Shown piece after piece: positions 16,941-61,020 of a DNA stretch of 64,000 nucleotides. The stretch's first letter is position 1. Each line of letters starts with the position of its first letter. Both the position numbers and the translations under genes were made by a program. Origin of the DNA: a virus (Duplodnaviria; Heunggongvirae; Uroviricota; Caudoviricetes); the IMG/VR virus record IMGVR_UViG_3300014047_000001, positions 1 to 64,000 of that record, one strand, 5' to 3'. The notes beneath the pieces are model-generated. The model had not been told where the DNA came from. It made no database searches and was given only the letters and a program-made list of their open reading frames with translations.

Positions 16941-16942
16941 TT

Positions 16943-22282: not shown

Positions 22283-22299
22283 TTTAAATTTATAAATAC

Positions 22300-23405: not shown

Positions 23406-23408
23406 GTA

Positions 23409-23624: not shown

Positions 23625-23626
23625 TT

Positions 23627-24448: not shown

Positions 24449-24516
24449 TTCAATATAGCGAATGACTTTTTTAGTTATTCGCTATATAATTATTATTAAA
24501 TTGTACTATATAAATT

Positions 24517-25209
24517 ATGGCTAAAAAGAAAGTAAAAGAAGAGCCGAAAGAAATGTCAATGTATGAAGAAGACTTAATATGGATGTCATACAGATACTGT
24601 ATTGGCAGACATACTATTGCAGCTTCTATGCATGCAGGAGAGATAGCAAAACATGAATATTATAGATTATCTCCAGAAAGACGTCAGTTTATGGCATTTG
24701 ATATTCGCCGAGAAATCGCATCTACTTTAAGTTTTGGACCTTTGAATTTCCGAATGGATCCAAATATAAAAGAAGAAAATTATAAGCCCCTTGAATTATT
24801 GTTAGAATTCTTCGATGATAATGATATTCATACCCGTGAAGATTTAGCAAAGATTGCAAGCATTCATACCCATATCACCTCTTATAATAATCCGCAAGAA
24901 ATTTATATTACAACAACCTCTAAAGATGTAAAAGAAGAATCACATATATCAACATTTGATATATTAGATTTAATTCCATGGGCAAACCTTGCTGCATGCT
25001 TTGATGTTAATAATCATAAGTGGTGTACTGTTAATGTAAATGGTGAAGAAAAGACTATTGAATACTTTGAAGCATGGGTAGAAGCAAATAGAAAAGAAGG
25101 TCAAGATTTTAATTTCACAAAAGTAAAAATAGGTGTAGATTCATATTTAAAGAATCCTAATTATTGCGGATACCTTATAGAAGATTATATTGTAAAAGAT
25201 GGAGTATAA
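24517..25209 (+). CDS. hypothetical protein
   Basis: 230-aa ORF. Confidence 0.5.
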   Translation: MAKKKVKEEPKEMSMYEEDLIWMSYRYCIGRHTIAASMHAGEIAKHEYYRLSPERRQFMAFDIRREIASTLSFGPLNFRMDPNIKEENYKPLELLLEFFDDNDIHTREDLAKIASIHTHITSYNNPQEIYITTTSKDVKEESHISTFDILDLIPWANLAACFDVNNHKWCTVNVNGEEKTIEYFEAWVEANRKEGQDFNFTKVKIGVDSYLKNPNYCGYLIEDYIVKDGV

Positions 25210-25435
25210 TTGGCATTAGATAACCGAATTACCAGAACATGATGGATGGATATGGTTATGTACAGGAAATAAAGGGTTAGGATCAAAAATAAGAGTATTC
25301 TATTATAATTATGAAAACCAAATAAAGCATGGACATACACGCCTTAAAGATATGTTAGTTGGTTCATTGAATACTGCAAAATACTGGATGTATGCTATAC
25401 CTATTCCTGAAGAATTAAAAGCAAATAAATTATGA
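25199..25435 (+). CDS. small hypothetical protein with in-frame TAG
   Basis: Frame-2 ORF of 78 aa (MEYNWH-Q-ITELPEHDGW...), hidden from the track by a TAG near 25217. Its TGA overlaps the next ATG. Confidence 0.3.
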
Positions 25436-25668
25436 GAAGAATAATAATATTAGATACAGAATCAAAAAGATTATTGAATATTATTTTATCTCCTGAACAA
25501 GAAAAATATTTAACAGAAGAGCTTAATAATGATATAGATCTTTTTATAAATGAAATTGTTGTAAAACTTTATCATATAAACTATAATAAATGTGCATATA
25601 TTACCGGTGATGTAAAGGATATAAAAGAAGAACATTATTACGGACCTAAAGTATTAGATAAAGTATAA
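25432..25668 (+). CDS. hypothetical protein
   Basis: 78-aa ORF. Confidence 0.4.
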   Translation: MRRIIILDTESKRLLNIILSPEQEKYLTEELNNDIDLFINEIVVKLYHINYNKCAYITGDVKDIKEEHYYGPKVLDKV

Positions 25669-25670
25669 TT

Positions 25671-26156
25671 ATGAGATATAATAGAGATAAGATTAAAGAA
25701 GAAATTGATATTTATGGACAGCATTATCCATGTCCAAAATCAAAGACAGTAGTAGAAACACATGATGGTAAACAATACTGGCGTCATTATGAATTTGGTG
25801 CAATATATGGTTTTGTTTTATTTAATGAATATGTTGCATATAGAGATGAAGAGCCAAAAGAAATGTATAGAATCATGTCTATTAATGAAGATGATGAAAA
25901 TTGGAGTATTCCACATGGCAGTATGACAATGGATACTGCTTGGATTACTGCAGTCAATAATACATGGCAACGTGCAGTAGAATGGAGTAATAAGCACCTA
26001 ATCCAGGGATGGGAAAAGGGTTCAGATATTACAGATCCTGGTCAATATGTACGTAAGCAGAAAGAACCTATTGTAAATGAAACCGTTCAATGGGATGATG
26101 TACCTGATAACGCTGTTTTAAATACAAAGTATGCATATATAGAAAATGAAGATTAA
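25671..26156 (+). CDS. hypothetical protein
   Basis: 161-aa ORF. Confidence 0.45.
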   Translation: MRYNRDKIKEEIDIYGQHYPCPKSKTVVETHDGKQYWRHYEFGAIYGFVLFNEYVAYRDEEPKEMYRIMSINEDDENWSIPHGSMTMDTAWITAVNNTWQRAVEWSNKHLIQGWEKGSDITDPGQYVRKQKEPIVNETVQWDDVPDNAVLNTKYAYIENED

Positions 26157-26167
26157 ATTAAGTAAGT

Positions 26168-27160
26168 ATGGAAAATAATACACAACAAAATAATACACAA
26201 CAGCATGTAACTCAAAAACTTTTTACTGAGTTATTTCGTCCACAAACATTAGAACAAGCTATATTAGTACCAAGAGTAAGGCAAGAATTGGAAAAAGGGT
26301 TGCAAGACAATATATTACTTTATTCTAATACTCCGGGCACTGGTAAAACTACATGTACGAGAATTCTTGCAAAATTGGGCGCGGACCCATTAGAAATAAA
26401 TGCATCTCTTGAAAGAGGTATTGATGTTATTCGTGAAAAGGTAATGAGTTATGCCAGCGCATCGTCATTATTTGGAGGAGAAGAGCAGATGAAAGTTGTT
26501 ATTCTTGAAGAGTGTGATAATTTAACATATGATGCATGGGCGTCTTTAAGAGCATTAATAGAGCAATTTCATAGTCATGTACGCTTTATTGCAAACTGTA
26601 ATTATATAGATAAAATCCCTGAGCCTATTCTATCAAGGTTTAATTGTATTTCTATCCTCCCAATTAATCAGGAAGAAGAAACATATCTTATTGCACAATA
26701 TGAAGAGCGTGTGAAGCTTATTCTTAATGCTTGCCATATTTCGTTTACAGATGAAAATGTAAAAACATTCGTTAAGAATAGTTTTCCTGATATGCGTACA
26801 CTGATTAAGAAAATTCAGCAGTTGTATACAAGAGGATGCAAAGAATTAACAGCAGATGCATTAGGTTCAACATTTGATTGCTCAACATTGTTCAATGTAA
26901 TTATGCAGCCTGGTAATCCTTGGGATAATTACAAATATTTGGTTGGCGACTGGAGTAATAAAGCTGATGATGCAATACTTGCAATAGGACAACAATTCCC
27001 AGAATACCTTATGACTACTTGTCCTCAGAAAATTGGGAAACTTCCATTGATTATAATCGCGATAGGAGAGTATAATTCAATGTTAGCAACATCTATAGAT
27101 AAATTTGTAACATTATTGGCATTAGTATTTAAATTGCAGATGATTTTACAACAAGCATAA
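26168..27160 (+). CDS. clamp loader AAA+ ATPase subunit (T4 gp44/RFC-like)
   Basis: P-loop NTPGTGKTT, DExx box (ILEECD) and an SRC-type SRFNC motif. Confidence 0.65.
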   Translation: MENNTQQNNTQQHVTQKLFTELFRPQTLEQAILVPRVRQELEKGLQDNILLYSNTPGTGKTTCTRILAKLGADPLEINASLERGIDVIREKVMSYASASSLFGGEEQMKVVILEECDNLTYDAWASLRALIEQFHSHVRFIANCNYIDKIPEPILSRFNCISILPINQEEETYLIAQYEERVKLILNACHISFTDENVKTFVKNSFPDMRTLIKKIQQLYTRGCKELTADALGSTFDCSTLFNVIMQPGNPWDNYKYLVGDWSNKADDAILAIGQQFPEYLMTTCPQKIGKLPLIIIAIGEYNSMLATSIDKFVTLLALVFKLQMILQQA

Positions 27161-28136: not shown

Positions 28137-31100
28137 ATGAAAAAGATAAAGTTAACAAATAAAATATATTCTCAATATAAATCTATAAATGAAGATACAT
28201 CTACTGGTACAGCAGGTGCAGCTTTTGAATTATAGATACCCGAAAATATTTTAAAGCCTATAGAAGATAGTATAGAATAGGAAATTTATAATGATAATAT
28301 TTTTGTTCGTGTAAAAATGACAAAAAATTTTTACGATGCAATGAGTTTCCCTACTGCATGTACAGAATTAAATCGTTTAGTAGAATTTGTAGATTTCCCT
28401 GGTTATTTAAAAGATTTAGGCGGACGATTAGATTCTGATCCAAAAATTAATATTAAATAGGCACCTGATTATGCGGCAGCTGCATTTGCAAATACAGAAT
28501 TTAATATATTTACAGCAAGTCCATTAAAGAAAACACATGAAAGTGTTTCATATAATAGTAATTCTGTATTAAATGAAGATATTTTACCAACAATGACACA
28601 AGTTGGGCAAGCTGCTGGAGAATTAGGTGTTATGATTGGACAAGGTGTTGCTGATGGTATTAGTGGTTTTGCTAGTACTGTTGGACCGGCTATTGGTAAT
28701 GCTGCTGCATCAGCAGCTCCTACAATAGGTTTAGGAATTGCTGGTTTATGGGGTGCTGGTTATGCAACAGGTGCTGCAATTGGTACATTAAGCAGTGATT
28801 AGAATCCTAACAGATTTACTAATGATAAACAATATGATATTGATTATACAGCAATTCCAGAAGAATCAAAAACAACATCAAATGACCCAATAGTTGCTAT
28901 AGATGATTATATAAGAAATATACAAGCAAGTGTTTCTAAATTATTATCTTATATTACAGCTAGATCTGCAAGACAAGATATTTCAGAGTTAGAAAAAACT
29001 ATTAATACATTAACAGGTAAAGCAAATAAAAGTATTGAATAGTTTATTAGAGATAATAATGAAACATTTAAAGAAAAACAAGAATTAGAACGTCAACAAG
29101 AAACAATAAATGCTACTAGAAAGGCAGAAATGGCACAAATTAGAGCACATATATGGTCAATATTAGGACGTAATAATTTAGTAAGTCAATATACATCAGA
29201 ATTAAAGAAGATTGATAATATGAAGCTTATAGAATTATAGGCATTAGAAAAACGATTATAGGAATATGATAGAGCTTCTTCTAGAAAAACAACCGATGAA
29301 TCTATAAAGAATATTAATCTCTTCTTTAATCAATTAAATGAAAGTGATGCGATTACTTCATCAGACAATGGAAAATATTTAATATTTAATGCAGATCCTA
29401 TATATGATGATATAAAAACTACATTAACAGAAAAAGTTATAAAAATTCTTTCTACTGATCCAGAAGATTGGGAATCAATAAAATGGGCAAGAAAAGAAAT
29501 GGATGTTATGCAAGAAGGCGCTGATAAAGAAATTCTTGCAAAGATTGATATTATTTGCCGTACTGGTAATGTAGAGCAAATGGGATTAGGAGCAAAACTT
29601 GGAGCATTTATTCATAAGCATCCAATGAGAGCTGAATATCTCAAAGGCTTATGGGGAAGATATATGCGTGATTTGGATGTACGTAAGCAAAAACGTATAG
29701 ATAATATGACAACACCTGATAATGCTTCTCCACTTGGTATGTGTACTTCTTTCTTAAAGAATACTTATCCATCGCTTATAGCAATGATGATAACATATAA
29801 AGCTATTATTAAATTAGTTACAGATACACGAGTATAGAATAAGTATGTAGATATTATTGAAGACCCTAATAAACAAGCTTCTCAAAAACAATAGCAAATA
29901 AAAGCAATATCTACAAAATTAGAGGCTTCATTTAGAGGAGAAGGTATATATCTTGCAGCAAAGAATAATAATGGTAATCCTATATATGACGATGAAAAAC
30001 ATGTATTTACTGTGGCACCAAATATATTAACAAGATTTGGATTATTCATGTCACAATTTTCACCAGAAAGATCTTTGACAAAAGATAATATAGATAAGTA
30101 TGGATTAGACTTTATTAATATGGTAAATCTAATAGTACCAAATGATACTAATGCTACATAGAGCTTCTTTACACGTTTTATATCATTCTTGAATAATTTC
30201 GGTAATACAAGTGCATTACAAAAATGTAATATTGATCCATACTTTATTAATTTAAATGCAAATCAAGAATTAGTTAAAATTATTGATTTATTAGATAATA
30301 TAACAGCTATAAAAAATAAAGTTGATAATGATTCTTTCTTCTCAAAATTAGCTAATAATAGTTTAACAGAATCAGATAAAAATAAGTTCTGTTATTTACT
30401 TGCATATATCCGCAGTACAAGAGGATTATTCTTATCTAATTATGAGAAATTAAAATCACAAATTTTAGGATTAGAAGTAAAAGATAAAAATGATAAAGAT
30501 CTTAAATCTATAAGAGAACAATTACATATTAATGGTGATATATCATCTATAAGTGCCACAATTGATGATATTAAAGCAGAATTACCATGGGATTCTCTTA
30601 AATATATTCTTGGATATAATTTTAATGATAGTTATATTTTATCTGCATTATTATATTATAAATTAGGTTTATATGAATGTGATAAATTTAAAAATGAATT
30701 TAATACAAATATAAATTATAGTTTAATAAAATCATTTATTGAATTACTTGGTGATAACTTTAATAAAGTTACAATGTTATTTGATAATGATGCAGCAATA
30801 TTTGATCTTGAACATTTCCGAAATGAATATATGGGTACTAATGGCGCTATAGACGCGAAAGGCTTATATGATTTATTACATATATTTACAAATACAGATA
30901 AAAAAGATTTAAAGGATTATCAAGCATATGCGCAAACAATAGATAAGCAACTAAAATCTACAAACCCTATTGTTCCATCAGGAGAAAATATAAAAGTTAA
31001 TAATATTAATAGTTTTAATGATATTATTACATTATTTGGATTTGATTCACATAAAATAAAGAGTATTGATGGATTTATACAAAATCTTAAGAAAGATAAT

Positions 31101-31712
31101 TTAAAAGACTTGGATATAGAAAAATGTTCAATAATTTTTAAAGAATATCTTGCACAAGTTATTAAAAAATTTGATGAAGATTTTGATAAACAAGATTTAT
31201 CTGCATTTGAAAAGTTTGTGGGTAATGTAGATGATAATAGTCATATAGAAAAAGAAACAATATTTGTAGGATATGACAGCAATGATAATGCAGCACATGT
31301 TTCATTATCACAATTCTTATCAATATATTCTGAAGTTGTTTCATATGCATTAAATGATAGTAATGTTAAAACGAATCTTACTAAACTTACTAATGATATT
31401 GATGCAGAAATTAAAAAAGCATTTAAACAAAAAACAGGTTTAGAATTTAATTTTAATTTCGTTAATATAAATGATGGTTTGCTTGTATAGATGTCTGAAA
31501 AAGATATGACGCCTGGTAATATTAAGGGTATAATAGATACATTAGAAGTTACAAGCAATGGACAAGTATATAAAGCTAATACAGATATGCTTGTTAAAAA
31601 CAGCTTATTAAATTTCTTGCCGGATATATTTAATCTTCCAATTATGACGAGATTTGTAAATATTATGTTTGGTAATGAAAATGGTAAAATTTATAAATAT
31701 CAGAAATCATGA
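28137..31712 (+). CDS. tape-measure-like giant protein (1191 aa)
   Basis: Frame 0 is open from ATG 28137 through track ORFs 28593..28802, 29499..29837, 30189..31490 and 31491..31712, crossing about 12 TAGs, to TGA 31710-31712. It has a Gly/Ala-zipper hydrophobic stretch and long coiled-coil-like regions. Its position follows a tail-chaperone-like gene. Confidence 0.5.
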
Positions 31713-34865: not shown

Positions 34866-37526
34866 TTATGTAGTAAATTTTCTTGTAATACCTAATGCTC
34901 TAACAGTTGATATATTAGAATTATTTATAAATGCTCTTGTATTAATATCTGATAATGTTTGATTTGCTTGTGATAAGGCAGCACCATTAAATTTCGTAAT
35001 AAGCTATGTATTATAATTTCCTGTATTTGATGATTCATGCCCTTGATCAAGTTTTACAGATTGATATGTACTACCAGAAACCCCAGCTTTTGCTTTTATT
35101 TCATTTGTATGCATATATCCAGGATTTCTAAAAGCAGAACCTCCAGTAAAATTATCTACGTGTGTTTCGAATTCACTTGAAGAGCGAATATAGTCAGGCA
35201 ATTCATATATAGCACCCATACCTCTATTAAACATCGACTGTATCGCCTTTTTATCACGCTGCATACCATGTTGTAAGGTATATACAACTTTAAGCTCTGT
35301 AGGAAAATCATCTGGCCCCAATTCTTCTCCAAATTGTACATCCATCTTCTCACATATCAAGTTACCAACAACAATAATAGGATTCAATGGATTACCGACT
35401 GTTAAATGCCATTCACCAACAGGATCACCAATAAGTATTGCATTCATTCCATGAATTTGTGGAGCAACAGATTTTGCAAGAACTTTTGAGTGCCACATTG
35501 TATTTAGATTATTAAATACATTATTAGCTGCAGCTTTTAAAGCATCATTATTTTTTCCACTTACTGCTTGCGCCCCTTTATCTAATATTGTAGATAATGC
35601 ATTTGTACCTTCACCAAATAATGCTGTTGTTACTGAACTTACAAGAGAACTTATACATGCTAAACCAGTTCCAAGCATACCACCTAATTTAGATGTAATA
35701 TTTGACCAATCAAAGCCTCCAGTATCACCAGTACCAAATTCTTTTACACCTTTTAACACAGTAGCAATTGCTCCATTATCACCAAAAATTTTACCATCAT
35801 AAAGTTTCTTCATGAAGTTATCACGCCATCCACCATCATGGAATGGATACATATGAGGTGTTATCATAAATCTATGGCCACCTCCCCAGAATATTGCAGT
35901 TGGAGAAACCATTTCCATACAGTTTGCCAGTATATCAAGCATTGCTGCTTTTGGATTTATACCGCCAATAGATTTTGTAACATATGTACATGTAACTTGG
36001 TAAGATGAATCAAATATAATACCTTCTTTTCTGCGTTTTACTGCTTGTATTCTATCTAACGGTCCTTGAATACGGTGTGAATATATATTTTCATATGGAT
36101 TCATATTTGCTGCTAACAGTTTCATCTGTGCATTTTCTGTCAAATCAACTTTTTTGTTTATCGCCATTGCCATTTTACCAAATGATAATATACGGTTGGT
36201 AACATTAGTACCTAAACTTAATAAGCCATTAAATGCATTATTATCAGCACCACCGAAACCACCATCACTACCAAACATTTCATCAATAACAGCTTGTGGA
36301 TCAGAACCATCTTCACCAGATACATCCCATATATCTGCAGTAGCTTCATCCCAATTAATACCCGTGGAGAATTTTAAAAAATCTTGGAAACTATTACCGG
36401 TTTCAGATCCAATATAAGAAACTACTGTACATCTTGGTGCAAACAATGTTGGTTTTTTTCCTCCGTCATTAGAAGATGTTCCTCCATTATCATCTCCGTA
36501 CATCTATTCAAATTGTAAATTATCTCTTGTTGGTGCATGATAGCGTCTTAATGTAATCAACCTATTATTTGGAATAATACCAAACCATTTACAATATACA
36601 AAATCTTGATAACTATAAGGAGTTCTGCCCCATATATCTTTATTAGACCATTCTATAATATGTGTTACTGTTGGTGATGCTACTTGTGTTATAGTATCAG
36701 GAGTACCTGTACCAGTATAACTATAAAATCTACGAGAGTCACGTATATCATACATAAAATTCTATGGGTTATCATCTGCACTTGTTGGCGCTTCAAAAGA
36801 ACCGACTAATTTTGTTAATGAATAAGGATTCATTAATGATGCAGCACCATAAAATTTACCATCTGTTTCATATTGGCGTATAACATCTTCTCCCATAACA
36901 GGAACTAAATCTCTCCTATTCTATGGAGAATTTGCAGCAATATCTACTTTTGGATCTGCTGGTTTACCATTTTTCTCCAAAGTTTTTTGGGCAACAGCAG
37001 CAGGTAACATATATACCATATCTGCAAATGCAGTAGCGACAGTATCAGAACCAAACGGAACTATTATTTTTGCTCCAGGTTCTCCATTATCAACAGCTTG
37101 TGATAATGACATATAAAATGTTTCCATACGTGATAAACGTGGATCCCATGCCATTAAATGCTAAATAGCTTCTTCATTCTTTTTTTCTGGACTTTCTTTG
37201 TCCAATTCTTCTTGTATAGCTAAACTATTCTCTCTACTACGATTTGCTAATAAATTGTCTCTTATATTATTAACAAAACTTTCTACAACTTCTCCATATA
37301 CAGTAGGATTATCCCCATACATAATAGCTAATGTATTAAGTACAGGGTTATCATAATTTTCATTTATCCATCTTTTAACATCGTCCTCTTTGTCTAACCA
37401 ATCTTTGACATTAATATCTACTTGATTACCAAATATATCTGTAAATGATTCATTAATATCTGTATTATTTGATAGATATGATGCTTTTATTCTTTCATAA
37501 AAATCATTTAATAATTGATCTGTCAT
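34866..37526 (-). CDS. virion structural protein (~886 aa)
   Basis: Track ORFs 35004..36503, 36504..36755, 36921..37154 and 37161..37526 are all in the same minus frame and abut at TAG codons. Read-through past TAG 35004 continues to TAA at 34866-34868. Confidence 0.5.
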
Positions 37527-37535
37527 TGTTAATTA

Positions 37536-39104
37536 TTTACATTATTTTATAGGACTAATAAATCTCATCTTATTAGCATTATTTGGTGTATCTACCAATA
37601 TAAGTTTACTAGCATTACGAGTAATAGGAGAATACATATCCACCTTATAAGTATCACCAATAGAATATTTATTTTCATATAATCGTATATTGCACATATG
37701 AACATTTTTATTCATATTATCAATAGTAAAATATTCTATATCAAAGCTTTCTGCTTTTATTGTATCTTCTTTGTCAATATTCTTTATCTGTTTTATCTTG
37801 CCGGTTTTTGCATTTAAATTTTCTTCTATTACTATTACATGTAATTCATTAGAGGATAAATCTACTGCAAGATAATGCCAGTTATTAAAATCAGGAGTTT
37901 TATCAAATGTATATGCCTTTAATATATTTCCAAAACGTATACATATTTCTGATTTACTTACATTAATATTATAAATATTATCTCCCTATGAATATCCGCT
38001 GAATAAATCAAATGAAGAAATCTTCTATGCCTTCCAAATACCAGTTGACCACCAATTTGTAAGTTTCTTATTAATTTTCAGCACATCTGATAATGCTATG
38101 CGTAAAACATATCCAAAATCACATTCACGAGGTTCTACCGTAGCTTTAACAGAAATCATATTACCTCTACTTAATATTATTTCATCACCCGGATGCAATG
38201 TTACAGCAGACTATGTTATTTCAAAATACCAGAATGATTTTTCTTTTGTATATATTTCTGGGAATTTTATAATTCCTTCTTCCATATCATCTGTACCTAA
38301 TATTCTAAACCACGTAGTAAATATCCAATGATTTGCTTCTAAATCATTTTTATCATATACTGCATCTACATGATATTTTATATTCTGTTTAGCTTTACTG
38401 AAATCATAGTAAGCATCTGTAATAAGATTATTCTTATAACCTTCTATATGTTCCATAACAATAGAATCTATATCATAATCTTTTAATGGATCTACATAAG
38501 TAGAATTATTATATGCTGTTTCTACTTCAACTGCAGCATCTGCTACTTCTTTAGAAATATCATCTCCAAATAATACATCTTGTGAAGTTGTAAGTTCATC
38601 AATAGAAATACGGAAGTCTTCTGATTCTCTACGAGATGCCTGACGCTGATATTTCCTCAATACACATTTATAAGAAGTTGGCATAGAAGTTAATGTATAA
38701 ACTACTTGTGAAGAAGATACTTCATATGCACGGTTTATTAATTTGATTATTAATATATCACCTTTCTAAGGCATTGTGTCTTTACCATATACAGCTTCCC
38801 AATCAGGAAGATTAATACTTATAGATAAATCACTGTCAAAATCTATACCTAATGCACCAAAAGTAAAAGTACCTGCTTGATAATCTGTTTTGTCGCATAT
38901 TACCTTTAAAGGCTTTGGACATTCTACATTACTTAATGTATATTCTTGTACTATAACATCTTCAGAATTCTCATATGGCAAAGCTCTGCACCACAAAACA
39001 TCTAAGCCTACCATCTATGTAGCAGACTGCTATAACTGCATAACTGTATTATAAACAGATGCAGCCATTGCATTCATATCTATAGGAGAATTGATTACAG
39101 CCAT
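37536..39104 (-). CDS. virion structural protein (~522 aa)
   Basis: Track ORFs 38211..38684 and 38766..39014 share a frame and are joined by TAGs. Manual translation of 37527..38210 is open apart from TAGs, until a TAA near 37536. The upstream ATG at 39102-39104 is reached across two TAGs. Confidence 0.45.
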
Positions 39105-40839: not shown

Positions 40840-43800
40840 ATGGGAAAACGATTAGACTTTGCAGGTGCAGCATTTGATCCAGTTGTAATGCGCTGGTATT
40901 ATGGAAATACAGATAAAGAACCAAATTCAATATATTCAGTTAAATCAGAAGTATTTAAGTAGGGTTATGAAGATCCTACTTATATGACTTTCCGTGTAGA
41001 ATTCGGAGAATGGGGAGCATCTGTTTTACATAGAAATGCTTTTACAATGCATGGAGGAATGGTATTGAATTCATAGCATCAAGATTATGATCAATTACCA
41101 AATGGCTTATTGGATTTACATTTTATTCCTGAAGAAACTTAGGAACAATATCCATTTTATACATTTAATAATCAAACATATTATAATGCTTATAATTATC
41201 TTAAACAACGTAATGAAGATGCAAGAGCAGAATATTTAAAGGCTTTTGTAACGGGATTATTTGAAATACAAAAAGATCACCCATATCTTTTTCAGAGTAT
41301 ATCAGGATTAGATGGTTTAAGCAATTTTTCACCAGAAAGTGGTCAACGTTTAAATAAAGATACATTTGTTACTATAGAATGTATTGAAGGGTTATCATTA
41401 AAGATAAAAACATTATTACAATTATATAGAAAGGCTGCATGGGATGATGCATGGCAAAGATGGGTTTTACCATTAAATATGCGTTAGTTCAAAATGATCA
41501 TTTATATTTTTGAACGTCGTATGTTTTAGGAAGTTAATAGGGTAAGTCCATTTACTTCTGAAAAACAATTACATACTGTAAATACAGATATTCCTGTTTA
41601 TGCATTTGAATGTAATCCTTGTGAATTTGTAATAGAGAATATATGGAATGGTAATTATGATGCAACATGGGGAGGTGATGCTGAAAAAACAAAGATAACT
41701 ATCCGTGTCAATAATGTAATGACATATTATAGAAATGGTTTACTTGATAGAAAATTGAATAATATATTAATTTATGATTTATTTGATGCTATAGATCGTC
41801 AAAGTACCACTACAGTATATAGTTCCAATACTAATATGTCTGTAAATCAAACAAAAGGTCAATTCTTAAAAAAACATATATTATTAGAAAATGAAGATGT
41901 TGCTATAAATGATTCTCGCATAATGTATGGTACAGGTGAAGAATTATTAGATGAGGATCCATATATAGCAGAACCATATTATAGAGAAATAATTAATACC
42001 ATGATGCCTCATTCTTTATTAGGTGAACGCATAAAAGCTAATTGGTGGCATGAAGCTACGGTAGAAGGCCGTGATTACTGGAGTAGCATGAGCGGATGGG
42101 ATGGTTTATTTGGCGGAGGCACATGGAGAAATATTGGTAAAGGCTTATGGAATGTTATAACTGCTGCTACTACGCAAATTCGTGTATCTCAGAATTACAG
42201 CACTCATAATTCTACAGTATTTTATAATATTCTTGATTATATAGAAACTGAAGGTTCCCCTGCAGAAGAAACTTATAGTATGGCTACTGAATATCTTTTA
42301 CCCGTACGTAAAGATTTGAAACATAATGCAGATGCAGCAACTCGTGGAGAATCTTCATGGGCTACAAGAGAAGTAGGTAAAGGCAAATTCAGAGATTAGT
42401 CAAGAGAATTGGATGCAATAGATTCTGAAGCATTAACAGAGAATGATTATTCATGGGCAACAGATGATAAAGATGCCGAAGGAAATCATGATTGGACAAA
42501 ATTCAGAGATAATCCTAATAAACGTCAAAAATCAAAATTTAACTGGAATAAAATAGATTCCAGTACAATGACCGGTGGAGATTTTTCATGGGCTACTACT
42601 GATTATAATGAAGCAGGAAATGTAAAAGGAAATGATTGGTAGAATTCTGCACAATATAAATCATCAGAAGTACCTCGTCAAAAGAATGGATTTGTATGGA
42701 ATAATATAGATTCTAATACATTAACTGGTGGAGATTTTTCATGGGCTACAGATGATAAGAATAATCATACAGATCATAAATGGGAAGATTTTGATAAAGA
42801 TCATATGCAAGACGGCCAACGTTAGAAACAAGCATTTGTTTGGAATAGTATAGATTCTAATAAATTATCGGAAAACGAAAGGTCAAAAGCAACGAAAGAT
42901 GGTAATAAAATACAAGAAGGACTTAATAGAGATTTATTAACAGAATATGATTATTCATGGGCTACTCAAGGAGAAGGATAGAAAGAACATGATTCTAATA
43001 TGGCATTCAGAAAACCCGATAATACTGAAAGAAATTCTGTTATAGATAAACCTATAGAAAGCGGGGGTATAGATTCTGCTGATTTAACAAATTATGATTA
43101 TTCATGGGCTACTCAAGACCTTATGAATGAATATGATCATCCTGTAAAAATAAAAGGTGGAGGGTTAGATACATCTATAAGAGAATAGAATAATAATATT
43201 CAAGTATCATTAGAAGATCCTCGTCTAGATCCTAGTTTAAATTTAATTTCAGTTGAAAGAAAAGATCGCAAGGGCAATAATGAAATATAGTATCCTATTT
43301 TAGATACATCTCGTGGATATGAAAAAACATTTAATTCAACAGATTTTTCCAATAGAGAAATGAATGAGCAGCTTCCCCCAACATTAGAAAGGGAATCTAA
43401 AAATTTTGTAAAACCTAATCTAAGAACTGTTGATGATACTGAACGTGGTATAAATGAAGAAATAATATTTGCTGGTTTAGATGAACGTACATTAAATACG
43501 GATATTGTATATGATCCATTAAAAGAAAGAAAATTAGATAAACCGGAATTCAGAGATATTGATAATGAACGTACTTTACCAGAATCACAATTTGGTGAAA
43601 TTCAGGGTACACGTAATATTGACAGAGATATTCAAATGAAATTAGAAAATCCTCGTTCAATACCAGAGCAAATAATGAATAATACTGAAGAAGAAAGGAA
43701 ATTTGACAGTAATTTACGTGAAACAGATTTTAAGGATCGTACAATAAATCAAAGCGTTGAACCATTAGAATATCAAGATAGAGAATAGAATAATAATGTT

Positions 43801-44877
43801 CATTTATAGATAGAAGATGCACGAGAACTTCCAAATTATCAAAATAACCAAAATGTATTAGAAGAGCGTAAAATTATTGATCAAGCATTAAGGCAACCAG
43901 ATAAAGAATTAATACGTCCGGAACATAGTTTAACTTCTGTAGATACGCATAAACGCGGTATAAATGATAATAGTTATTTCTCATTACAAAATACAGAAAG
44001 ATTCATAGATAATAATATTCAAATAGAAAATTATGAAGCACGTGTTATTAATGAGTAGCAATTAAGGAGTTTGAGCGATGAAGAAAGAAAGCAGGTAGAA
44101 GTTGTATTAAATCGACCAGATATATTAAATTATATTAGTAAAGCAACTAATGCAGCATTTAATGCAGAATTCCGTAAGGTTGATCAAGAATCATCAAGAA
44201 TAGACGCGACTGCTAAAGGTATGTTATAGAACTCTGAAGTATTCAAGAATTTACAATATGATGAAAATATAAAGGACAAGGATTTGACACAAGTTTTGGC
44301 TTTTGCAAAAGCTTATTCAGACGAATCTGACGCGATGAAAAATGCTTTCATTACTCGTATATAGGGGTTATAGAAAGAACTCAAAGAACAAACATTAAAC
44401 ACAGTCAGAGACATTCCTGAAATGGAGTATTAGATAATGAAAGATGAGAAATCGGAAAAGCAAGAACCTATTCTATTATCTGTAGAGCAAGTAGAGCAAA
44501 TAAAGAATAATGTAAAACTTGCTTCATTGGCAGACGCAGAAATAAGAGATTTATCTTATAAAGGTTTAATTTCTTTACATGATGCATTGGAGAATAATAT
44601 TGTAAAAACAATGATATTATAGAAACCTGATACCGTTGATGATAGAAGTATTGCAACAGATTTAGATAATCCACCTAAGCCAATTATAAATGGGAAAATA
44701 GATTAGGGGGAAGATAAAGATCCAAAGAAAATTGTAAATGGTAAGACAGAAGGTAATAATGCAAAGAATCTATATAATAATATTAGCAATGCAAAAATTG
44801 AGCAACCATCTAAGAAGCAAAGACCAATATTAGGACATAGATTAGATGATAAAAAATATAAAAAAGAGGGTTAGTAA
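40840..44877 (+). CDS. giant virion protein (1345 aa) with tandem (D/E)(Y/F)SWAT repeats
   Basis: Frame 1 is open from ATG 40840 through track ORFs 41719..42399, 42409..42642, 43000..43188, 43360..43788 and 44437..44622, crossing about 25 TAGs, to TAA 44875-44877. Confidence 0.55.
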
Positions 44878-44895
44878 AATTAACCCTCTTTTTAT
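44866..44895. terminator. rho-independent terminator (bidirectional)
   Basis: AGAGGGTTA-GTAAAAT-TAACCCTCT followed by TTTTTAT. It lies between convergent genes. Confidence 0.5.
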
Positions 44896-47800
44896 TATTG
44901 ACCTTCATTTTCAAAAACAGTATTTTGTAATTGTATCTCTGCTGTTCTATAATTATATGCATTATAATTATCTATTGTAAATTGTCCACCTGCATATTGT
45001 ATAGGGTTATTACCATAATAATCTTTTGCAGTTTTCCAGAAATCATCCTGGTGCTCATCATCTGTTCCAATATGTATATGCTTGCTTTGCGTACCCATAT
45101 CATCTGTGGAAACCTCTATATAAGCAGAAACACCATGATCATACATAAGCTTTAATACACCGCCATTACCAAATATATGATTCTTTAATACGTCATTAAA
45201 AGATATACCGTTATTAATTATATCAATAGCTTCACCATATAAATGTCTAGAATTATTTGTACTGATATACATTATATTTCCACGAGCATCCTTACATTTA
45301 TACTTATCTCCACTCTTTACAAATGCATTACCTTCAACTTTTTCTCCATTAGTATCTACTGCATATCTCCTTGCACCAACGAGTTTTATTTTATGTGCAG
45401 AAGACTCATCTATAGCTCTGTAAATATCTTTCATGAAATCTTTTAAACCAGTCAAAGGTACATCACCCACGTTATCTTCTTCAGCTACTTTATTATCCTA
45501 AGAAATTTCTTCTTCTGTTTTATTTGCTGTTACGTTATCACCTGTTGGTGTATTTGGATTAGGATTTGTACTTTCATTTGTAGGTATATTATTCTATTGT
45601 TCCGCTAAAGAATTCTTTACATTTTGATAACCAGGAATTGGCCATTCTCTGCGTGTTAATTCTAATTCTGTAGACCATGCTGATTCAGCGCGCTTTGGCG
45701 TACTTGTAAATATCCATTTAATAGATTTAATAATAAACCATCCAGATAATGTTGTATAAGTACAAGTGTTTAAGAAACGTGCATGCAAAGTATTTTCATC
45801 AACTTTTACTTCTTTTCCTGTAGATGGATCAAATGTTACCGGATTAGTGCTCAAAAGTGATGTTAATTTGTTATTGTCCAAGAATAATGTAGGAATTTTT
45901 TCACCTCTCATCATTGCAAAGTTTGCGCCATTCAATTTAACCTTTACAATCTTCTTAAGTAATTGCATGTTATTAATCTTATTATGCTCAAAAGCGGCAT
46001 CATAAAATTTATTAACATTACCGGTAGCTAATTCATTACTTCCTGTATCTGCAATAGTTTCTCCATCGGAATCTGCCATCATATCAGAATCTCTACCTCC
46101 ACGTTTCTTTGTATTCTATTTAACATAAGAACCATTATCTGCTTGTACATAAGTTCCATTAGTACCTGGACCTACTAATATATAGAAACCACCATTTGGA
46201 TATTTAGCAGCATTATATGGTATTGAATATGTCATTTCTACTGCATTATTATCTGGTTCAACGCCCTGATTATTAATAACAAAATTTGTTGTTACTGATA
46301 TACCAACCTGCTTTGTTATTTCTGCTGCTTGATTGACTTCTTTAAAATCTATAGCATATAATGCTGTACCAGCTTCATCATCATTCGGTATATTTGTAAT
46401 TAATTTCAACTACGGACGCGGAGCTGATTTTTGTTCTCCATCTGTTGCAGAACCATGCTGATTATCTACACCTCTATTATGCTTAAACACATCATTAAAT
46501 AAAGTTATATCAAATGTTTCATCAGGACCGTCTTCACCAAGCATTTTATTAACATTCAAGAAAGTCAATCCATAACGGGGATCTATCCAAGCATCAAAGA
46601 ATGATTCAAAGTTTTTCCATGAATGTGCAACTGTATCCTTAATATAATCCATTAAATTTGAACCTTGTGCTTTACCCTCTTCATCTGAAGATTCTGCCAT
46701 ACAATACCATAATTGGTTGTCATCTGTATTTTCTGGATCACAGAAGAAAAAGCCTAATCCTAATTTTGCTGCTGCATCTATCATTGCATCTCTACTAGTT
46801 CCTGCAAAAGAGAATGACATATTAGCATTATGTAAATTAGGTATAAACAATTCGCCCATTATGGTAAAATTATAAGGAACATTTAATTGATTCTATGAAA
46901 CTTCACTACTATCTACATAAGTTATAAGAAAATCACAACGTAAAGATTTTATCATACCATGACCTGGCGAACAGAATACTGCAATAATATCGCCTTCTTT
47001 TGGAACATTTGTTTTTAATAAGTCATTATTAGTTGTTGTAATTTCTAATGTAATTGTAGGAATAAATCCTACACATGCTATTTCCATTCTATCTATTTCT
47101 TTCTATGAGAAATAATAATCATTAATACGAATAATAGGATATGTAGCGCCAACTTCCAATGTAATATCTGGCTGATTTCCAGAAAGCTTCTAAGAACCTG
47201 CAGACATATCTTCAACATTTGCATATGTTGCTGTACTTGAATCCGCTGAATAATGCATACCAGTAGCAGGATTTATAGGTGTATTATTACCATCCATTGG
47301 TAAAGATAATTCGTCAAGCTATATAGTAGGTTCACTATACTTATAAATACGTGTACGTTTTTGTCCGTCTTCAGTACCACCAGCTGATAACTATGAATAT
47401 ATATTATCGCCGGCAGTTGCCAATACACTTGGTGCATTAGAAGAATATTGATTCTATACACCTGCAAGCTGATCATAATAATTATCCATATTATTTTCAT
47501 CTATTGGTGGAGTGGGTGCATTTCCATCATATCCTTCTGAATAAAATAAATTTGCTTCTCTTATTCGACGTCTTCTTAAGCCTTTTTCATGGCGAGAACC
47601 CGGTAATACATAAGAAGATTGCCATGTAGTTGTAACCTTTGATTTATTTTTATATCCATTACCCTATATAGTTTTTCCTAATGTAGTACGTGATATATTA
47701 CCATGATTATATGCAATACTAAACATAGCATCAAACATACTTTGCGTCATACCAGTATGCCATATTTTGTTTACATCCGCAGAAATAGTTTTTGAATCCT

Positions 47801-47975
47801 ACTTAAAGAATGCCATACATTCTGTATCTGAATAACGTTTACCATTAACGAGATCTCTAGAATGATGTCCAAATCCAACAGTTGGATATGATTCGCCATC
47901 TAATATATATGCAACATTAGAATAACCTTCTGCAGTTTTTAAAAAATTAAACCCGTTTTGACTTATCTATGCCAT
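44895..47975 (-). CDS. virion-associated dual-domain lysin: N-terminal GH24 (T4-lysozyme-like) plus C-terminal M15 peptidase (1026 aa)
   Basis: Track ORFs 44895..45470, 45594..46082, 46116..46409, 46410..46859 and 46893..47087 share one frame and are joined by TAG. Manual translation of 47088..47975 is open apart from TAGs. The N-terminus TAEGYSNVAYILDGESYPTVGFGHH matches the T4 lysozyme EG...TIGIGH motif. The C-terminus SRHLYGEAID...HIH is M15/VanY-like. Confidence 0.6.
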
Positions 47976-48122: not shown

Positions 48123-51100
48123 TTATTGTTCTACTTTAGTCCAATTATAACTACCTAAATAATAACTATCTGTACTCATCCATGTATCATAACCAGTACT
48201 ACCAGCAGGTACTGTTAATGTGCCACCTCGCTTTACACTGTTAAATGTACGCTTTACTATTGTAGGTGCTGTCATCGCATTAGATACTATATTTGTTAAA
48301 CCGCTACAATCATTGAAAGCATAATTACCAATACTTGTAACACTATTTGGAATTGTTACACTTGTTAAACCGCTACAGTTACTGAAAGCCCAACCACCAA
48401 TGTTTGTAACACTATCCGGTATGACTATACTTGTTAAACTACTACAACTACCGAAAGCACTACTACCAATACTTGTAACATCGCTTGGTATAACCGTATT
48501 TTTGCAACCACTAATAAGAGTATTTGTTGCAGTCTCAATAATTGCATTACAGTTATTACGTGAGTCATATACTGTATTATTGCTATCAACGGTAATACTT
48601 GTAAGACTACTACATCCCATGAAAGCACTACTGCCAATACTTGTAATACCACTACCAATGATTACATTTGTTAAACCATCACACCATTCCAAAGCATAAT
48701 TACCAATACTTGTAACACTATTTGGTATATTTATGCTTGTAAGACCACTACATCCTTGGAAAGCACTTTCACCAATGCTTGTAACTCCACTACCAATAGT
48801 TACACTTGTTAAACCGCTACAGTTATTGAAAGCTTTATTATCAATGTTTGTAACACTATCCGGTATGACTATACTTGTTAAACTATTACAACCATAGAAA
48901 GCCTCATTACCAATTGATGTTACTGAATCTGGTATAATTACATTCGTAAGTCCTGTACAATAACTGAATGCATTGTTACCAATTGATGTGATACCTTCAG
49001 GTAATGTAAATAAAACAGTATGTTCACCTGTTGAATTAAATGTATAGTATTTTTCAACTTTTTTTTCCTCGCCATCCACTTTCATTGAACTAAAATTATT
49101 AGTACTATCTAATAATGTTGTTGGGTGGCTTGTATCAGCAACATTATATTTGCACAATACTTGGTTTTCTTCTAATATTGTCCAATTATACTTACCTAAA
49201 TAATAATCGTCGGTTCCCATCCAAACATCATATCCAGTAGAACCTGCTGGTACAGTTAATATACCATCTGACTTAATACTTTGGAATGTCCAATCTTGTA
49301 TAGTTGGAGCAGTAGTTGCATTACATGTTATATTCATAAGACCTGAACAATTATAGAATGCGGTATCACCTATAGATGTTACTGAATCGGGTATAGTTAT
49401 GCTTGTAAGTTCAGAACAATTTTGGAATGCAGCGCTACTTATTGATGTCACAGAGTTGCCTATAATTACACTTGTAAGTCCTCTACAACCAGAGAATGCA
49501 GCACTACTTATTGATGTCACAGAGTTGCCTATAATTACACTTGTAAGTTCAGAACACTCATAGAATGCAGCACTACTTATTGATGTTATAGAATCGGGTA
49601 TAATTATGCTTGTAAGTCCTGAATCAGAGAATGTATATTCACCTATTGATGTTACTGAATCGGGTATAGTTATGCTTGTAAGCCCTGAACAACCAGAGAA
49701 TGCATAATCACCTATTGATGTGACTGAATCAGGTATAGTTATGCTTGTAAGCCCTGAACAATAAGCAAATGCATGATTACCAATTGATGTCACTGAATTA
49801 CCTAATGTCACACTTGTAAGTGCAGAACAATTATTGAATGCATATTCACCTATTGATGTGACGCCATCTGCTAATGTAAATAAAACAGTATGTTCACCTG
49901 TTGTACTAAATGTATATGAATTTGCAATTTCAAGTTGTTTAACTCCATCTATTGACATAGAACTAAAATTATTAGTAGTACTATTTAATAATGTTGTTGG
50001 ATTTGCTATAGAAGTAACATTATATTTGCATAATACTTGGTTTTCTTCTAATATTGTCCAGTTATACTTACCTAAATAATAATCGTCGGTTCCCATCCAA
50101 ACATCATATCCTATAGAACCTGCTGGTACAGTTAATATACCGCCTGCCTTAATATGGTAGAATGTATTAGATGATATAGTTGGTGCGGTAGTTGCATTAC
50201 ATATTATACTTGTAAGTCCAGTACAATAAGCAAATGCGCTTCCATCTATAGATGTTACAGAATTACCTATTGTTACGCTTGCAAGTGCTGAACAACAAGC
50301 GAATGCACCTAAACCTATTGATGTTACAGAATTACCTATTGTCACACTTGTAAGTCCAGTACAATTAGCGAATATACTTGCACTAATTGATGTTACAGAA
50401 TTACCTATTGTCACACTTGTAAGTCCAGAACAACCCATGAATGCACCTCCACCTATTGATGTTACAAAATTAGGTATAATTACACTTGTAAGTCCCGAAC
50501 AACCAGAGAAAGCATTATCACCTATAGATGTTACAGAATTAGGTATAATTACGCTTGTAAGTCCTGAACAATTTTTGAATGCATTGTTACCTATAGATGT
50601 GACAGAATTACCTATTGTTACACTTGTAAGTCCAGAACAACCCATAAATGCACCTCCACCTATTGATGTGACTGAATTTGGTATAATTATACTTGTAAGT
50701 CCTGAACAACTATTGAATGCAGCTCCATCAATTGATGTTACAGAATCTGGTATAGTTACGCTTGTAAGAACAGAACAATTTTGGAAAGCACCAGAACCTA
50801 TTGATGTCACTGAATTTGATATGATTATGTTCGTAAGTCCAGAACAATTGACGAATGTGCCTGGTTCAATTGATGTGACAGAGTTACCTATAATTACACT
50901 TGTAAGTTTAGAACAATCTTGGAATGCACTTGTACCCATTGATGTTATACCATCTGCTAATGTAAATAAAACAGTATGCTCACCAGTTGTATCAAATGTA
51001 TATGAATTTGCAACTTCTTTTTCTTCTCCATCAATCTCCATTGACTTGAATATATTCTGCCCATAGCTTGTTCTTAATGTTGTTGGTATGCCTGTAGAAG

Positions 51101-51944
51101 TAACATTATATTTGCATAATACTTGATTTCCTTCTAATATTGTCATTGTCCAGTTATACTTACCTAAGTTTTCTGAGTAATAATCATCTTTTCCCACCCA
51201 AATATCATAACCCGTAGAACCTGCCGGTACTATTAATGTACCTCCAGACTTAATACCTTGGAATGTATTTGGATATATTGATGGAGCAGTTATCACATTA
51301 CATATTATATTCGCAAGTGCAGAGCAATTATTGAATGCACCATAACTAATATCTGAGATTGAATTACCTATTGTTACATTTATAAGTCCAGAACAATCAG
51401 CAAATGCACCTGCACTAATTGATGTTACTGAATCTGGTATAGTTATGCTTGTAAGTCCAGAACAATATTGGAATGCGGCAGAATTAATATATATTACAGA
51501 ATCTGGTATAGTTATACTTGTAAGAGCAGAACAACCAGAGAATGCACCTGGACCAATTGAGGTAACTGAGTTGCCTATAATTACGTTTGCAAGTGCAGAA
51601 CAATTTTCGAATGCTCCTGTATCTATTGATGTTACACCATCTGCTAATGTAAATAAAACGGTATGTTCACCAGTTGTATTAAATATATATGATTTTGTAA
51701 CTTCTTTTTCTTCATCATCCACTATCATTGAACTAAAATTATTAGAACTATTAAATAATGCTGTTGAAGTATTAATATCAGTAACATTATATTTGCACAA
51801 TATTTTAGATCCGGTAAAAGGATTAAAATAAGGTTTATTCTAATCTTCACATAAAGATACATTGGGTAAAATAAATTTTGATATATCAGATGCATAAGCT
51901 TGATATTCCTATACAGTATTAAATAATTTTATGTATCTCCCCAT
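48123..51944 (-). CDS. BspA-type leucine-rich-repeat (LRR_5) surface/receptor-binding-like protein (1274 aa)
   Basis: The 1225-aa track ORF has no internal TAG. An upstream in-frame ATG at 51942-51944 is reached across two TAGs. About 22-aa repeats (F..C..L.S(V/I)TIP.SVTSIG..AF) are organised in four modules of about 300 aa, each opening with NQVLCKYNVTS...TTGEHTVLFTL. The gene ends at TAA. Confidence 0.65.
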
Positions 51945-53589: not shown

Positions 53590-54192
53590 ATGGCAGATAC
53601 AACTAGTAATGGTTTAATGAGATTACCACACTTTACAAGTTCTAAAGTCAGCATGGACAAAGACGAACCTATATACACTAACCTGTTCACTATCACGTTA
53701 GTCCCACCAGCATCTATTGCAAATGAAAATGATTAGGATACGTTGGTAGTTCTTGAAGGTATCAAGAGTATATCTGGTTTGAATACACAGCCAGGTAATG
53801 GTACAGTATCTCAGAAGTATAAGTTTGCTGAGCGTATGTTCGCAGGTCCAGCACCATCTCAGACACACTTGACATTGAATATAGCATTCCAGCTTAATGT
53901 CCGTCCTGGTGTTGCATCTGATGAAAACTATACTTATAAGTTCTTGCGTAAGTGGCATGACCTTGTATATGATCCATTGACAGGTCGTATGGGTATCAAG
54001 CAAGAATATGCTGCATCTAGTATGACAATTACAATGCAAGATCGTAGGGGTGTTCCATATTGGCAGTGGATTTGTTATAACGTTTGGCCTTCTGGTCAGC
54101 TTAATGGTCCAGATCTTTCATATGACGGTGGGCAGATTATGGAAGCACAGTGTCAGTTTGAGGCAGACTACTTCGATGAATCAATTCTTTAA
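53590..54192 (+). CDS. tail tube protein (T4 gp19 family)
   Basis: ATG at 53590 is in frame with track ORF 53743..54192, across one TAG. The NLFTITL motif corresponds to gp19 NLFQVEI. GC content is higher here. Confidence 0.6.
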
Positions 54193-59982: not shown

Positions 59983-61020
59983 TTATTTTAACATTGAATA
60001 TCTGAATACTTTATTTGGACACCATTTATTAAAGAATTCCCCTGGTACCCACTTACCATTCCTTAATTTAATTTTATCAGATTCTTTCTTGGTTAATGAT
60101 GCATTCATATCATGGAGTAATTCTCTACGACGTTTACACCATTCTTTATATTCTGGTGTATCTTTCTTGAATTCATGTGTTGCCCATTCTTCCCAAGCAT
60201 CTAATTCTGCAGAATATTTTTTATATTCAGGATCTTCAAATTTTGAATATGAACCAGGTTTGTTTAATACCTTTTTATACTTCTGTTGAAGTTCATCATA
60301 TTTTGCTGTATATGCATCATAATATGGTGTATCTATTTCCTCTATATATTTTTCTAACTGCATTAATTCAACATACATATTAAAAGCAGTTTCTTCATCA
60401 TATCTTGTTATAGGTTGACCATTAGAATTTCTTTCAATTTTGTCTTGTTTCTTTTGTTTCTTTTCATCAACATAATAAGTGACTTTACCTGTTTGTTTTA
60501 TTATAAAACCGTATGTATATATTTCTCCATTAAAATAAAAACTATTGGTATCAAAAGAAACAAACACTAATCCTTTATCCGGAGAAACTAATAAATCTCT
60601 GCACTTCTACTTTGCATCCTATTCATCTTCATCATATAAATCCAGCTATCGAAGTATTTCTACAAAATCTTCATCCTTATGATGTAAATATGCCCAGTTG
60701 AATCCATTACGTAAAATCTTAACATAATCCGAAATAGGTTTACTCCATTCAAATCTATTAGTTACACGCTTTTTAGAACCATACCAATATACAGGCATTT
60801 CATCTTTGTCTATTGCATCTTTACCACCACGCATGAATGGGATATTCATTGACTGCAGAATTGCACTAATTTTTACATTTTTCTATACAGCATCTCTCAT
60901 AGCAGATGTAAGGTGAGAATTTTTATTATCTGTACTTACACTGCTAAAATCAAATGCTTCATTTATTTCTTTTTTTACTATCTTTGCCACCTCGTTTATA
61001 ATTTTACTATATAAAGACAT
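59983..61020 (-). CDS. hypothetical protein (345 aa) sharing an N-terminal module with the DUF285 gene
   Basis: Track ORFs 59983..60567 and 60646..60849 share a frame, joined by TAGs. It is extended to an ATG near 61020. The N-terminus [25 protein letters not shown] closely matches that of the adjacent gene. Confidence 0.5.

Follow-up and report, generated by a model that had tools for sequence, protein, structure and literature searches.

A conserved SWAT repeat array in the periodic extension of a predicted tail-tube-family protein from a relative of the Lak megaphages

Introduction

Periodic repeats with Trp or Phe as markers are a feature of tape measure proteins, and the number of repeats scales with the length of the tail (PMC8616913). 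In T4, the tape measure passes through the lumen of the tail tube from the terminator to the hub; its N-terminal end is uppermost, and its C-terminal end binds the hub (PMC12929629). T4 gp54 and gp48 are proteins of ~160-360 aa and have no long extension, whereas the predicted tube domain of the protein described here is followed by 850 aa of repeats and a C-terminal segment.

The protein is encoded in a stretch of viral DNA of 64,000 nucleotides (the window), which derives from a relative of the Lak megaphages, a gut-type giant phage that reads TAG as Gln. To our knowledge, no Lak-like megaphage has been cultured or imaged, no virion structures exist for the group, and the structural genes are mostly unannotated. 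A preliminary description of the window drew attention to tandem repeats with a SWAT core. Here, we describe the layout, conservation and family context of this array and propose a role for it in the phage tail.

Results

Under the standard code, the region 40840-44877 is broken into short ORFs. With TAG as a sense codon it becomes a single ORF of 1345 aa, which over its 4 kb contains no in-frame TAA or TGA:

40840..44877, plus strand: gene of the 1345-aa predicted tail protein, TAG read as Gln, 21 in-frame TAG codons, TAA stop at 44875-44877

Across the whole window, ORFs of 100 aa or more add up to 55 kb, and to 74 kb with TAG read-through. The 71 Gln-type codons of the gene comprise 45 CAA, 21 TAG and 5 CAG, and the counterparts of TAG across four orthologous genes are mainly CAA (46), TAG (36), GAA (23) and CAG (19). 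The alternation of TAG with Gln codons in orthologs, and a frame that is open only when TAG encodes Gln, mark this as a code-15 (TAG=Gln) Lak-like gene. A reading as a fragmented pseudogene was rejected. No tRNA genes were found in the window, and a megablast search of 24 kb of it against phage genomes returned no match.

The 1345-aa protein has three parts: a ~490-aa N-terminal domain, a ~600-aa periodic and probably non-globular region, of which the SWAT array forms the proximal 300 aa, and a conserved C-terminal segment. Along the gene these are arranged as follows:

40957..41784, plus strand: N-terminal core (aa ~40-315), predicted tail-tube (gp19/Hcp) fold, closest to T4 gp54 by AlphaFold2 model
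41785..42309, plus strand: conserved accessory region (aa ~316-490) with the motifs ANWWHEATV and ITAATTQIR, low model confidence
42298..43155, plus strand: SWAT repeat array, 7 units with 12 Trp, from unit HMM and alignment
43210..44109, plus strand: second repeat region (aa ~791-1090), acidic-x-R-x-(L/I)-(P/D), 14/28-aa period, no Trp, Pro about every 14 aa in the sequence
44110..44649, plus strand: conserved C-terminal segment (aa ~1091-1270), ...LASLADAEIRDLSYKGLISL..., present in most of the family

The N-terminal domain was modelled with AlphaFold2 on aa 1-500 of the ortholog P0001 (91% identical overall), using a 61-sequence alignment. The model is confident at aa ~40-315 (pLDDT 75-92), where the monomer has the beta-sandwich with flanking helix of tube proteins. 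Fold comparison returned the tail-tube fold, with the T4 baseplate-tube junction protein gp54 as best match. The core of the N-terminal domain is thus predicted to adopt a tail-tube fold nearest to that of gp54. Neither Pfam nor PHROGs gave a tube-family match for the 1345-aa protein, a comparison by hhalign between the family profile and the tube protein of the phage itself gave no significant alignment (probability 0.4%), and a PDB profile search with the family alignment gave spurious coiled-coil matches only. The tube assignment is structural and finds no support at the level of sequence. The UniRef name of the homolog P0048, 'Portal protein', proved unsupported: no portal structure is found among the fold matches, and the N-terminal domain does not show the portal fold with its clip, stem, wing and crown. 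The portal-vertex PCR primers published for Lak phages (PMC8755567) do not occur in any of the three Lak loci carrying this gene.

The array contains six exact SWAT cores at residues 506, 538, 583, 634, 706 and 755 (nt 42355, 42451, 42586, 42739, 42955 and 43102) and a degenerate SKAT core at residue 682 (nt 42883), which together span 42355-43113 in one frame. A unit HMM run over the window locates seven units, all of them at nt ~42298-43155, bearing out the initial count of at least six:

42298-42414, 42382-42513, 42517-42645, 42670-42801, 42811-42933, 42910-43014 and 43033-43155, plus strand: envelopes of the seven units by HMM

From core to core the spacings are 32, 45, 51, 48 (to SKAT), 24 and 49 aa. 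The regular unit is thus ~48-51 aa, which replaces the ~40-aa unit and 35-45-aa spacing first reported. In the DNA, a 35-nt core occurs six times at spacings of 96, 135, 153, 216 and 147 nt, each divisible by 3. Tandem Repeats Finder did not report the array on DNA because the units are too diverged.

The unit consensus is RQKxxFxWNxIDSxxLTGGD(Y/F)SWATxD...(H/N)xW, and each unit holds three Trp-centred sub-motifs (aromatic-x-W-x-x-x-D) ~16 aa apart. Successive Trp residues in the array are separated by 13, 17, 15, 16, 20, 15, 13 and 20 aa (~13-20), and the pattern aromatic-x-W-x(2,3)-D is observed 8 times against 0.2 expected. All 12 Trp lie in aa 491-800, with none beyond residue 800. That the tandem repeats are real is shown by aligning 48-aa blocks, which do not collapse: the mean pairwise local alignment score is 58.7 versus 23.3 +/- 1.3 for shuffled blocks, and none of 300 shuffles reached the observed score. 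The residues W, Y, D, N, G, S and T are abundant in the array. It is acidic (D 12.3%, N 10%, net charge -17), D-x-x-x-x-G-N-like stretches stand behind several SWAT cores, and charged low-complexity linkers lie between the units. Of the acidic or His-rich segments attributed to the units, only the acidic character holds, as there are, counted by eye, ~8 His per 300 residues.

TAG codons do fall between most cores, as had been noticed:

42397..42399, plus strand: in-frame TAG, Gln 520, within the SWAT array
42640, 42823 and 42979, plus strand: further TAG codons of the array
43186, plus strand: TAG just past the array end

A role as separators does not follow from this. The TAG density of the array equals that of the whole gene (21 in 1345 codons), and the array TAGs keep to no single repeat register. 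In one register, units read CGT-CAA-AAA, CGT-CAA-AAG and CGT-TAG-AAA, so that the TAG at 42823 stands against the CAA of its sister units. Given this density, this register and the mostly CAA, CAG and TAG counterparts in orthologs, the TAGs are ordinary Gln codons and not unit boundaries.

Full-length orthologs (P0001-P0005) share 91-53% identity with the protein. All SWAT cores are kept in P0001-P0003 and P0005, and a single core of P0004 reads SWGT. Down to 53% identity the core spacing is the same to within one residue, no SWAT unit has been gained or lost, and there are almost no indels. The P0006-8 clade (29% overall) has two intact and two decayed units, and the array is absent from every other homolog, including those of Lak phages. 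Several W, D, G and S positions do not vary among nine sequences that include the 29-38%-identical clade, and many W, D, G, S and I positions are kept even in that clade. Relative to an 83%-identical ortholog (dS about 0.6), dN/dS along the gene is:

tube-fold core: 0.08
accessory region (aa ~316-490): 0.084
SWAT array: 0.11
14-aa region (aa ~791-1090): 0.33
C-terminal segment: 0.035, the minimum of the gene

The SWAT array is therefore under strong purifying selection. With its low dN/dS, fixed core spacing and invariant positions, it shows constraint on its sequence, on the number of units and on their spacing, and in this differs from a passive linker.

Structure prediction, which had been suggested as a check on the repeats, returned no folded module. 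The whole array was modelled with AlphaFold2 on P0001 (aa 471-800; the 91%-identical ortholog, not the window protein) and a seven-sequence alignment. The result is coil with one helix and a pLDDT of 31, and no residue of the model is confident. With an alignment this shallow and an ortholog as query, a fold could have been missed; the model suggests that the SWAT array is a non-globular region.

Pfam searches of four separate segments, relaxed to E<=10, gave nothing relevant; the array matched no family at all, be it choline-binding, RTX, EF-hand or Ig-like, and the 1345-aa protein was also without a match in PHROGs. An exhaustive profile search with 25 SWAT units and no word filter against 1.84 billion (1.84e9) representative proteins returned seven matches, namely the ortholog cluster, three short ortholog fragments and three unrelated low-complexity or Ig-like repeat proteins. 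The three fragments are products of standard-code gene calling. An IMG/VR scan found two loci only, at 33% identity. From these searches, the SWAT repeat is an orphan confined to its clade. The profile check proposed at the outset thus recovered orthologs and their fragments besides the three unrelated proteins, and the original impression of an unrecognised repeat family is upheld. The protein P0088 contains LTDGDYSVAAV..AGN, an Ig-like adhesin strand motif with a weak likeness to the SWAT unit.

In a large protein database, 85 homologs of the 1345-aa protein were found. Almost all share the N-terminal domain, and most share the C-terminal segment (...LSLADAEIRxLSYKGLISL...). By tblastn, aa 34-487 are 37-38% identical to proteins of all Lak-A, -B and -C Prevotella megaphages, with weaker similarity to ~360-410-aa proteins of the jumbo phages PAU, PTm1 and pT24. 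These short homologs have no extension of any kind, and the extension must thus be dispensable for the core role. The middle of each homolog is a tandem array specific to its lineage:

Lak-A, -B and -C: NYVEPEMNLDKxDQ, DMDMTxLN
P0048: NMEEMDPLREVPDQ
P0009: QEVDKGRVVDQQTL
P0016: ELEPERELxxQQFK
P0085: GNPGNAGLTGGESNIE; C-terminal segment missing

The sequences of these repeats are unrelated, yet the autocorrelation of nearly all homologs is dominated by a period of 14, 28 or 42 residues. Of the 33 protein lengths in the Lak group, 22 belong to two classes modulo 14, which indicates gain and loss of whole units, although these sequences are related and hence not independent.

Several genes in the surroundings bear on the context of the protein:

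28137-31712: 1191-aa helical protein with a Gly/Ala hydrophobic segment, length kept in relatives
34866..39104, minus strand: divergent conserved neighbours, proteins of 886 aa and 520 aa, syntenic across clades
44895..47975, minus strand: convergent neighbour, 1026-aa protein with an N-terminal phage lysozyme domain (Pfam, PHROGs, phmmer versus PDB)
53590..54192, plus strand: major tail tube protein, 200 aa (phrog_45 'tail tube', E 3.9e-11)

The lysozyme-bearing neighbour is retained in orthologous contigs. In phmmer searches against the PDB, its lysozyme domain was the only part matched, and the 886-aa and 520-aa neighbours gave nothing useful. A peptidase-like motif, SxHxxGxAxD...HxH, was seen by eye at the C-terminus of the 1026-aa protein. 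A variable BspA-type LRR protein is also among the neighbours. In PTm1, the short homolog lies directly upstream of a gene for 'baseplate hub subunit and tail lysozyme'. Homolog searches with the 1191-aa protein found unannotated relatives only; this protein could be the real tape measure. The earlier placement of the repeats on a tail or baseplate protein agrees with the predicted gp54-like tube fold and with the tube gene and lysozyme-bearing virion protein nearby.

Discussion

We tentatively propose, with rather less than even confidence, that the SWAT units are putative linear motifs for multivalent docking, and that the tube-family tail protein carries them on an extension resembling a tether or ruler. 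Through their Trp and Asp anchors, the units would attach to a structural partner that is itself repeated within the tail. The most plausible candidates are ring subunits of the tube or baseplate, either successive or adjacent, with docking in or near the tube lumen. The extension would then be a tether- or ruler-like element that joins the ring-forming, tube-like domain to the conserved C-terminal segment. In the sister clades, where the ~14-aa period but not the sequence is kept, the periodic regions may have the same role. The in-frame repeat, the tail gene context, the periodicity across the family, the low pLDDT and dN/dS of the array and the regular Trp spacing are all consistent with docking. 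The Trp- or Phe-marked repeats of tape measures, and the course of the T4 tape measure along the lumen, offer a precedent. As the Trp/Asp array is conserved yet unfolded in the model, it can be likened to multivalent short linear motifs that dock on a folded, repeated partner. The periodic tail would be the most economical such partner, since the extension is covalently linked to the domain with the predicted tube fold and its period is conserved while its sequence is not.

A more specific form of the docking model is doubtful, in our view. Here, the protein would be a putative covalent fusion of two elements: a tube-family ring protein, acting as cap or initiator, and a non-helical ruler, punctuated by Pro and with a 14-residue period, that threads the tail tube. 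The Trp-x-x-x-Asp motifs of the SWAT units would dock on successive tube rings. This would be a new way for megaphages to measure or tether their very long tails. By our own arithmetic, 14 extended residues measure ~42-46 A, near the tube-disc rise of roughly 40 A. The SWAT array model, which covers only part of the extension, does not show the long alpha-helical coiled coil of a tape measure. Trp residues of the array follow one another at 13-20 aa, and the period of the family is 14, compared with the canonical 11 aa (PMC8616913). The Pro-punctuated sequence and non-helical array model, the different period, the short homologs without extension and the presence of a 1191-aa helical candidate argue against strict identity with a tape measure.

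The preliminary description had suggested a metal- or glycan-binding module. As a module this does not hold up, for the array has no predicted fold, matches no choline-binding, RTX, EF-hand or Ig-like family and is not rich in His. It is unlikely, though worth weighing, that the units are glycan- or envelope-binding repeats exposed on the baseplate at the host surface, with Trp, Tyr and Asp forming sugar sites. The W-, Y-, D-, N-, G-, S- and T-rich composition and the purifying selection would fit such a function, and a clade-specific repeat would be expected of a host-range determinant; the lysozyme-bearing virion protein, the variable BspA-type LRR protein and the weak likeness to the Ig-like adhesin strand motif of P0088 point the same way. 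However, the array lacks a predicted fold, and Pfam is empty even at E<=10. The attached domain is moreover a predicted tube fold, a type found inside the sheath and baseplate; in contractile tails, tube-fold domains are not located at the periphery. Host-range modules also usually vary among close strains, whereas the SWAT array is near-invariant in length and motifs.

We regard as improbable a Ca2+- or metal-dependent element, whose acidic D/N/G-rich loops would be disordered alone and fold or stiffen with cations. The high content of Asp and Asn, the net negative charge and the D-x-x-x-x-G-N-like stretches after several cores are what such an element might look like, but EF-hand and RTX consensus sequences, a Pfam match and an abundance of His are all lacking, and the conserved positions are as much aromatic or hydrophobic (W, F/Y, I, L) as acidic. 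There is a similarly small chance that the extension is a delivered payload, carried via the tube into the host in the manner of T6SS Hcp, where the SWAT units would bind a host target. The order of the parts, a predicted tube fold and then a long C-terminal extension, is compatible with this, and the contents of the tail lumen are ejected at infection. Against it, Pfam and PHROGs detect no enzymatic or toxin domain, and in all clades the extension is a periodic sequence of low complexity, which suggests a structural role.

A passive spacer, or repeat expansion without sequence-specific function, is very improbable: predicted disorder and the unrelated repeats of varying copy number in sister clades would suit it, but dN/dS in the array is near the value of the folded core, W, D, G and S positions are invariant in nine sequences including the 29-38%-identical clade, and the number of units is constant in orthologs down to 53% identity. 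Hardly credible is a portal protein with a repetitive C-terminal extension, which has in its favour the UniRef name of P0048 and a Peptidase_S77 gene (T4 gp21-type prohead protease) downstream in the P0016 contigs, and against it the lack of portal structures among the fold matches and of the portal-vertex primers at the gene's three Lak loci. None of these five explanations (glycan, cation, payload, spacer and portal) receives positive support from family or fold searches.

A conserved gene that is mislabelled 'portal' on one homolog can now be placed, from its predicted structure, in the tail-tube family. The architecture, in which a predicted tube-fold domain is combined with 450-900 residues of periodic repeats, is new for this family, and it is the period of the repeats that is conserved across clades and not their sequence. 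Should the extension prove to be a ruler or tether, it would offer a handle on how length is set in very large contractile tails, and Lak strains whose homologs differ by whole 14-residue units (1258 to 1386 aa) would constitute a natural experiment. The SWAT array further provides a clear demonstration, within a single gene, of the recoding of TAG to Gln.

Among described proteins, T4 gp54 and gp48 and the tail-tube family (gp19, gp3, Hcp) have the fold that is predicted for the N-terminal core, although sequence similarity between the 1345-aa protein and gp54 or gp48 is undetectable. Tape measures (T4 gp29, lambda gpH, TP901-1 TMP) are likewise long proteins of the tail module, and their aromatic-marked tandem repeats, which vary by whole units (PMC8616913), may be comparable. 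They are, however, helical coiled coils with an 11-aa repeat (PMC8616913) and no tube-fold domain, whereas the 1345-aa protein has periods of ~14-16 and 48 aa, Pro every ~14 residues and an array that is predicted to be non-helical. The homologs of Lak phages (Lak-A1, B5, C1 and 'Wendovervirus sonii' P0048) have the same N-terminal domain at 37-46% identity and the same three-part architecture, but their NYVEPEMNLDKxDQ, DMDMTxLN or NMEEMDPLREVPDQ repeats have a 14-aa period and include no SWAT units. Choline- and cell-wall-binding repeats (Pfam CW_binding_1) and other aromatic beta-hairpin repeats are similarly ~16-20 aa long, centred on Trp or Tyr and furnished with Gly, Asp and Asn; the SWAT array differs in having no Pfam match, no predicted solenoid, and charged low-complexity linkers between its units. 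In T6SS Hcp proteins with a C-terminal extension, the tube-fold domain likewise precedes the extension, but there the extensions are folded toxin domains, while that of the 1345-aa protein is periodic and probably non-globular. Taken together, tube-family tail proteins are known, and what is new here is the periodic extension with its clade-specific, strongly conserved SWAT array.

Length variation and possible recombination within the tail-protein gene

The gene encoding the 1345-aa tail protein of the window (40840-44877) has homologs in the Lak group, of which P0052-P0084 were taken into a comparison of lengths together with the loci L001-L003 (5779-9942). Taken modulo 14, the lengths of these homologs tend to group in two classes:

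Class one: 1274, 1302, 1316, 1330, 1358 and 1386 aa
Class two: 1258, 1286, 1300, 1314, 1328, 1342 and 1356 aa

This implies that Lak strains differ from one another by the gain and loss of complete 14-residue units.

Compared with its close full-length orthologs P0001-P0003, the window protein shows a similarity that varies by segment in a mosaic-like manner. P0002 is 96% identical in the SWAT array, 94% in the 14-aa region and 98% in the C-terminal part, but only 85 and 76% in the N-terminal parts. In P0001 and P0003, by contrast, identity is more uniform, and its minimum lies in the 14-aa region rather than in the N-terminal domain. This difference in pattern suggests that recombination has occurred inside the gene.

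Genomic neighbourhood of the tail gene

Two genes on the opposite strand follow the tail gene:

44895-47975, minus strand: virion-type protein of 1026 aa whose N-terminal part carries a phage lysozyme domain (PF00959)
48123-51944, minus strand: BspA-type leucine-rich-repeat (LRR) protein of 1273 aa (Pfam LRR_5, E 4e-138)

The product of 44895-47975 could serve as a hub or spike protein of the double-lysin type, its peptidase part being putative. The adjoining LRR gene is, on comparison with the 53%-identical relative contig (L008), a variable insertion, because only a 62-aa ORF is found at the equivalent position there; the LRR protein possibly plays a role in host interaction. Inspection by eye of the C-terminus of the lysozyme-bearing protein revealed the motif SRHLYGEAIDI...HIHIG, which is LAS/M15-type peptidase-like.

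Further genes of the window are:

28137-31712, plus strand: protein of 1191 aa in which a hydrophobic stretch rich in Gly and Ala (aa ~150-225) precedes coiled-coil-like sequence
61045-61929 and 59983-61020, both minus strand: adjacent pair with near-identical N-termini

Candidate roles for the 1191-aa protein are tape measure and ejection protein. Its relatives, one of them encoded on a 713.6-kb contig, maintain a length of 1180-1219 aa across 46-97% identity, and neither the protein nor any relative carries an annotation. The paired proteins share the N-terminus MSLY[SK]KIINEVAK[IV] plus 11 further residues, which points to a leader module duplicated on variable proteins; one of the two contains DUF285 repeats (PF03382, E 8e-78).

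TAG sense codons are unevenly spread. In 10268-27160, 22 of the 25 nucleotide- and DNA-metabolism genes (PNKP, clamp-loader-like AAA, PRTase-like) contain none, whereas the structural genes and the large terminase (28137-53452 and 7787-9982) hold 1-21 each. This distribution fits stop-codon recoding linked to late genes. No tRNA genes were found within the window.

Comparison with related phages

In the P0016 clade, synteny with the window clade is kept on the upstream side only. Downstream of the homolog, the lysozyme protein gene of the window clade is replaced by one for a 602-aa Peptidase_S77 protein of the T4 gp21 prohead protease family (L006, 12855-14663). The homolog P0048 of Wendovervirus sonii (Lak 'Sonny') is named 'Portal protein' in UniRef. 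This label is probably a mis-annotation, since a portal identity is contradicted both by the tube fold and by the published Lak portal PCR target.
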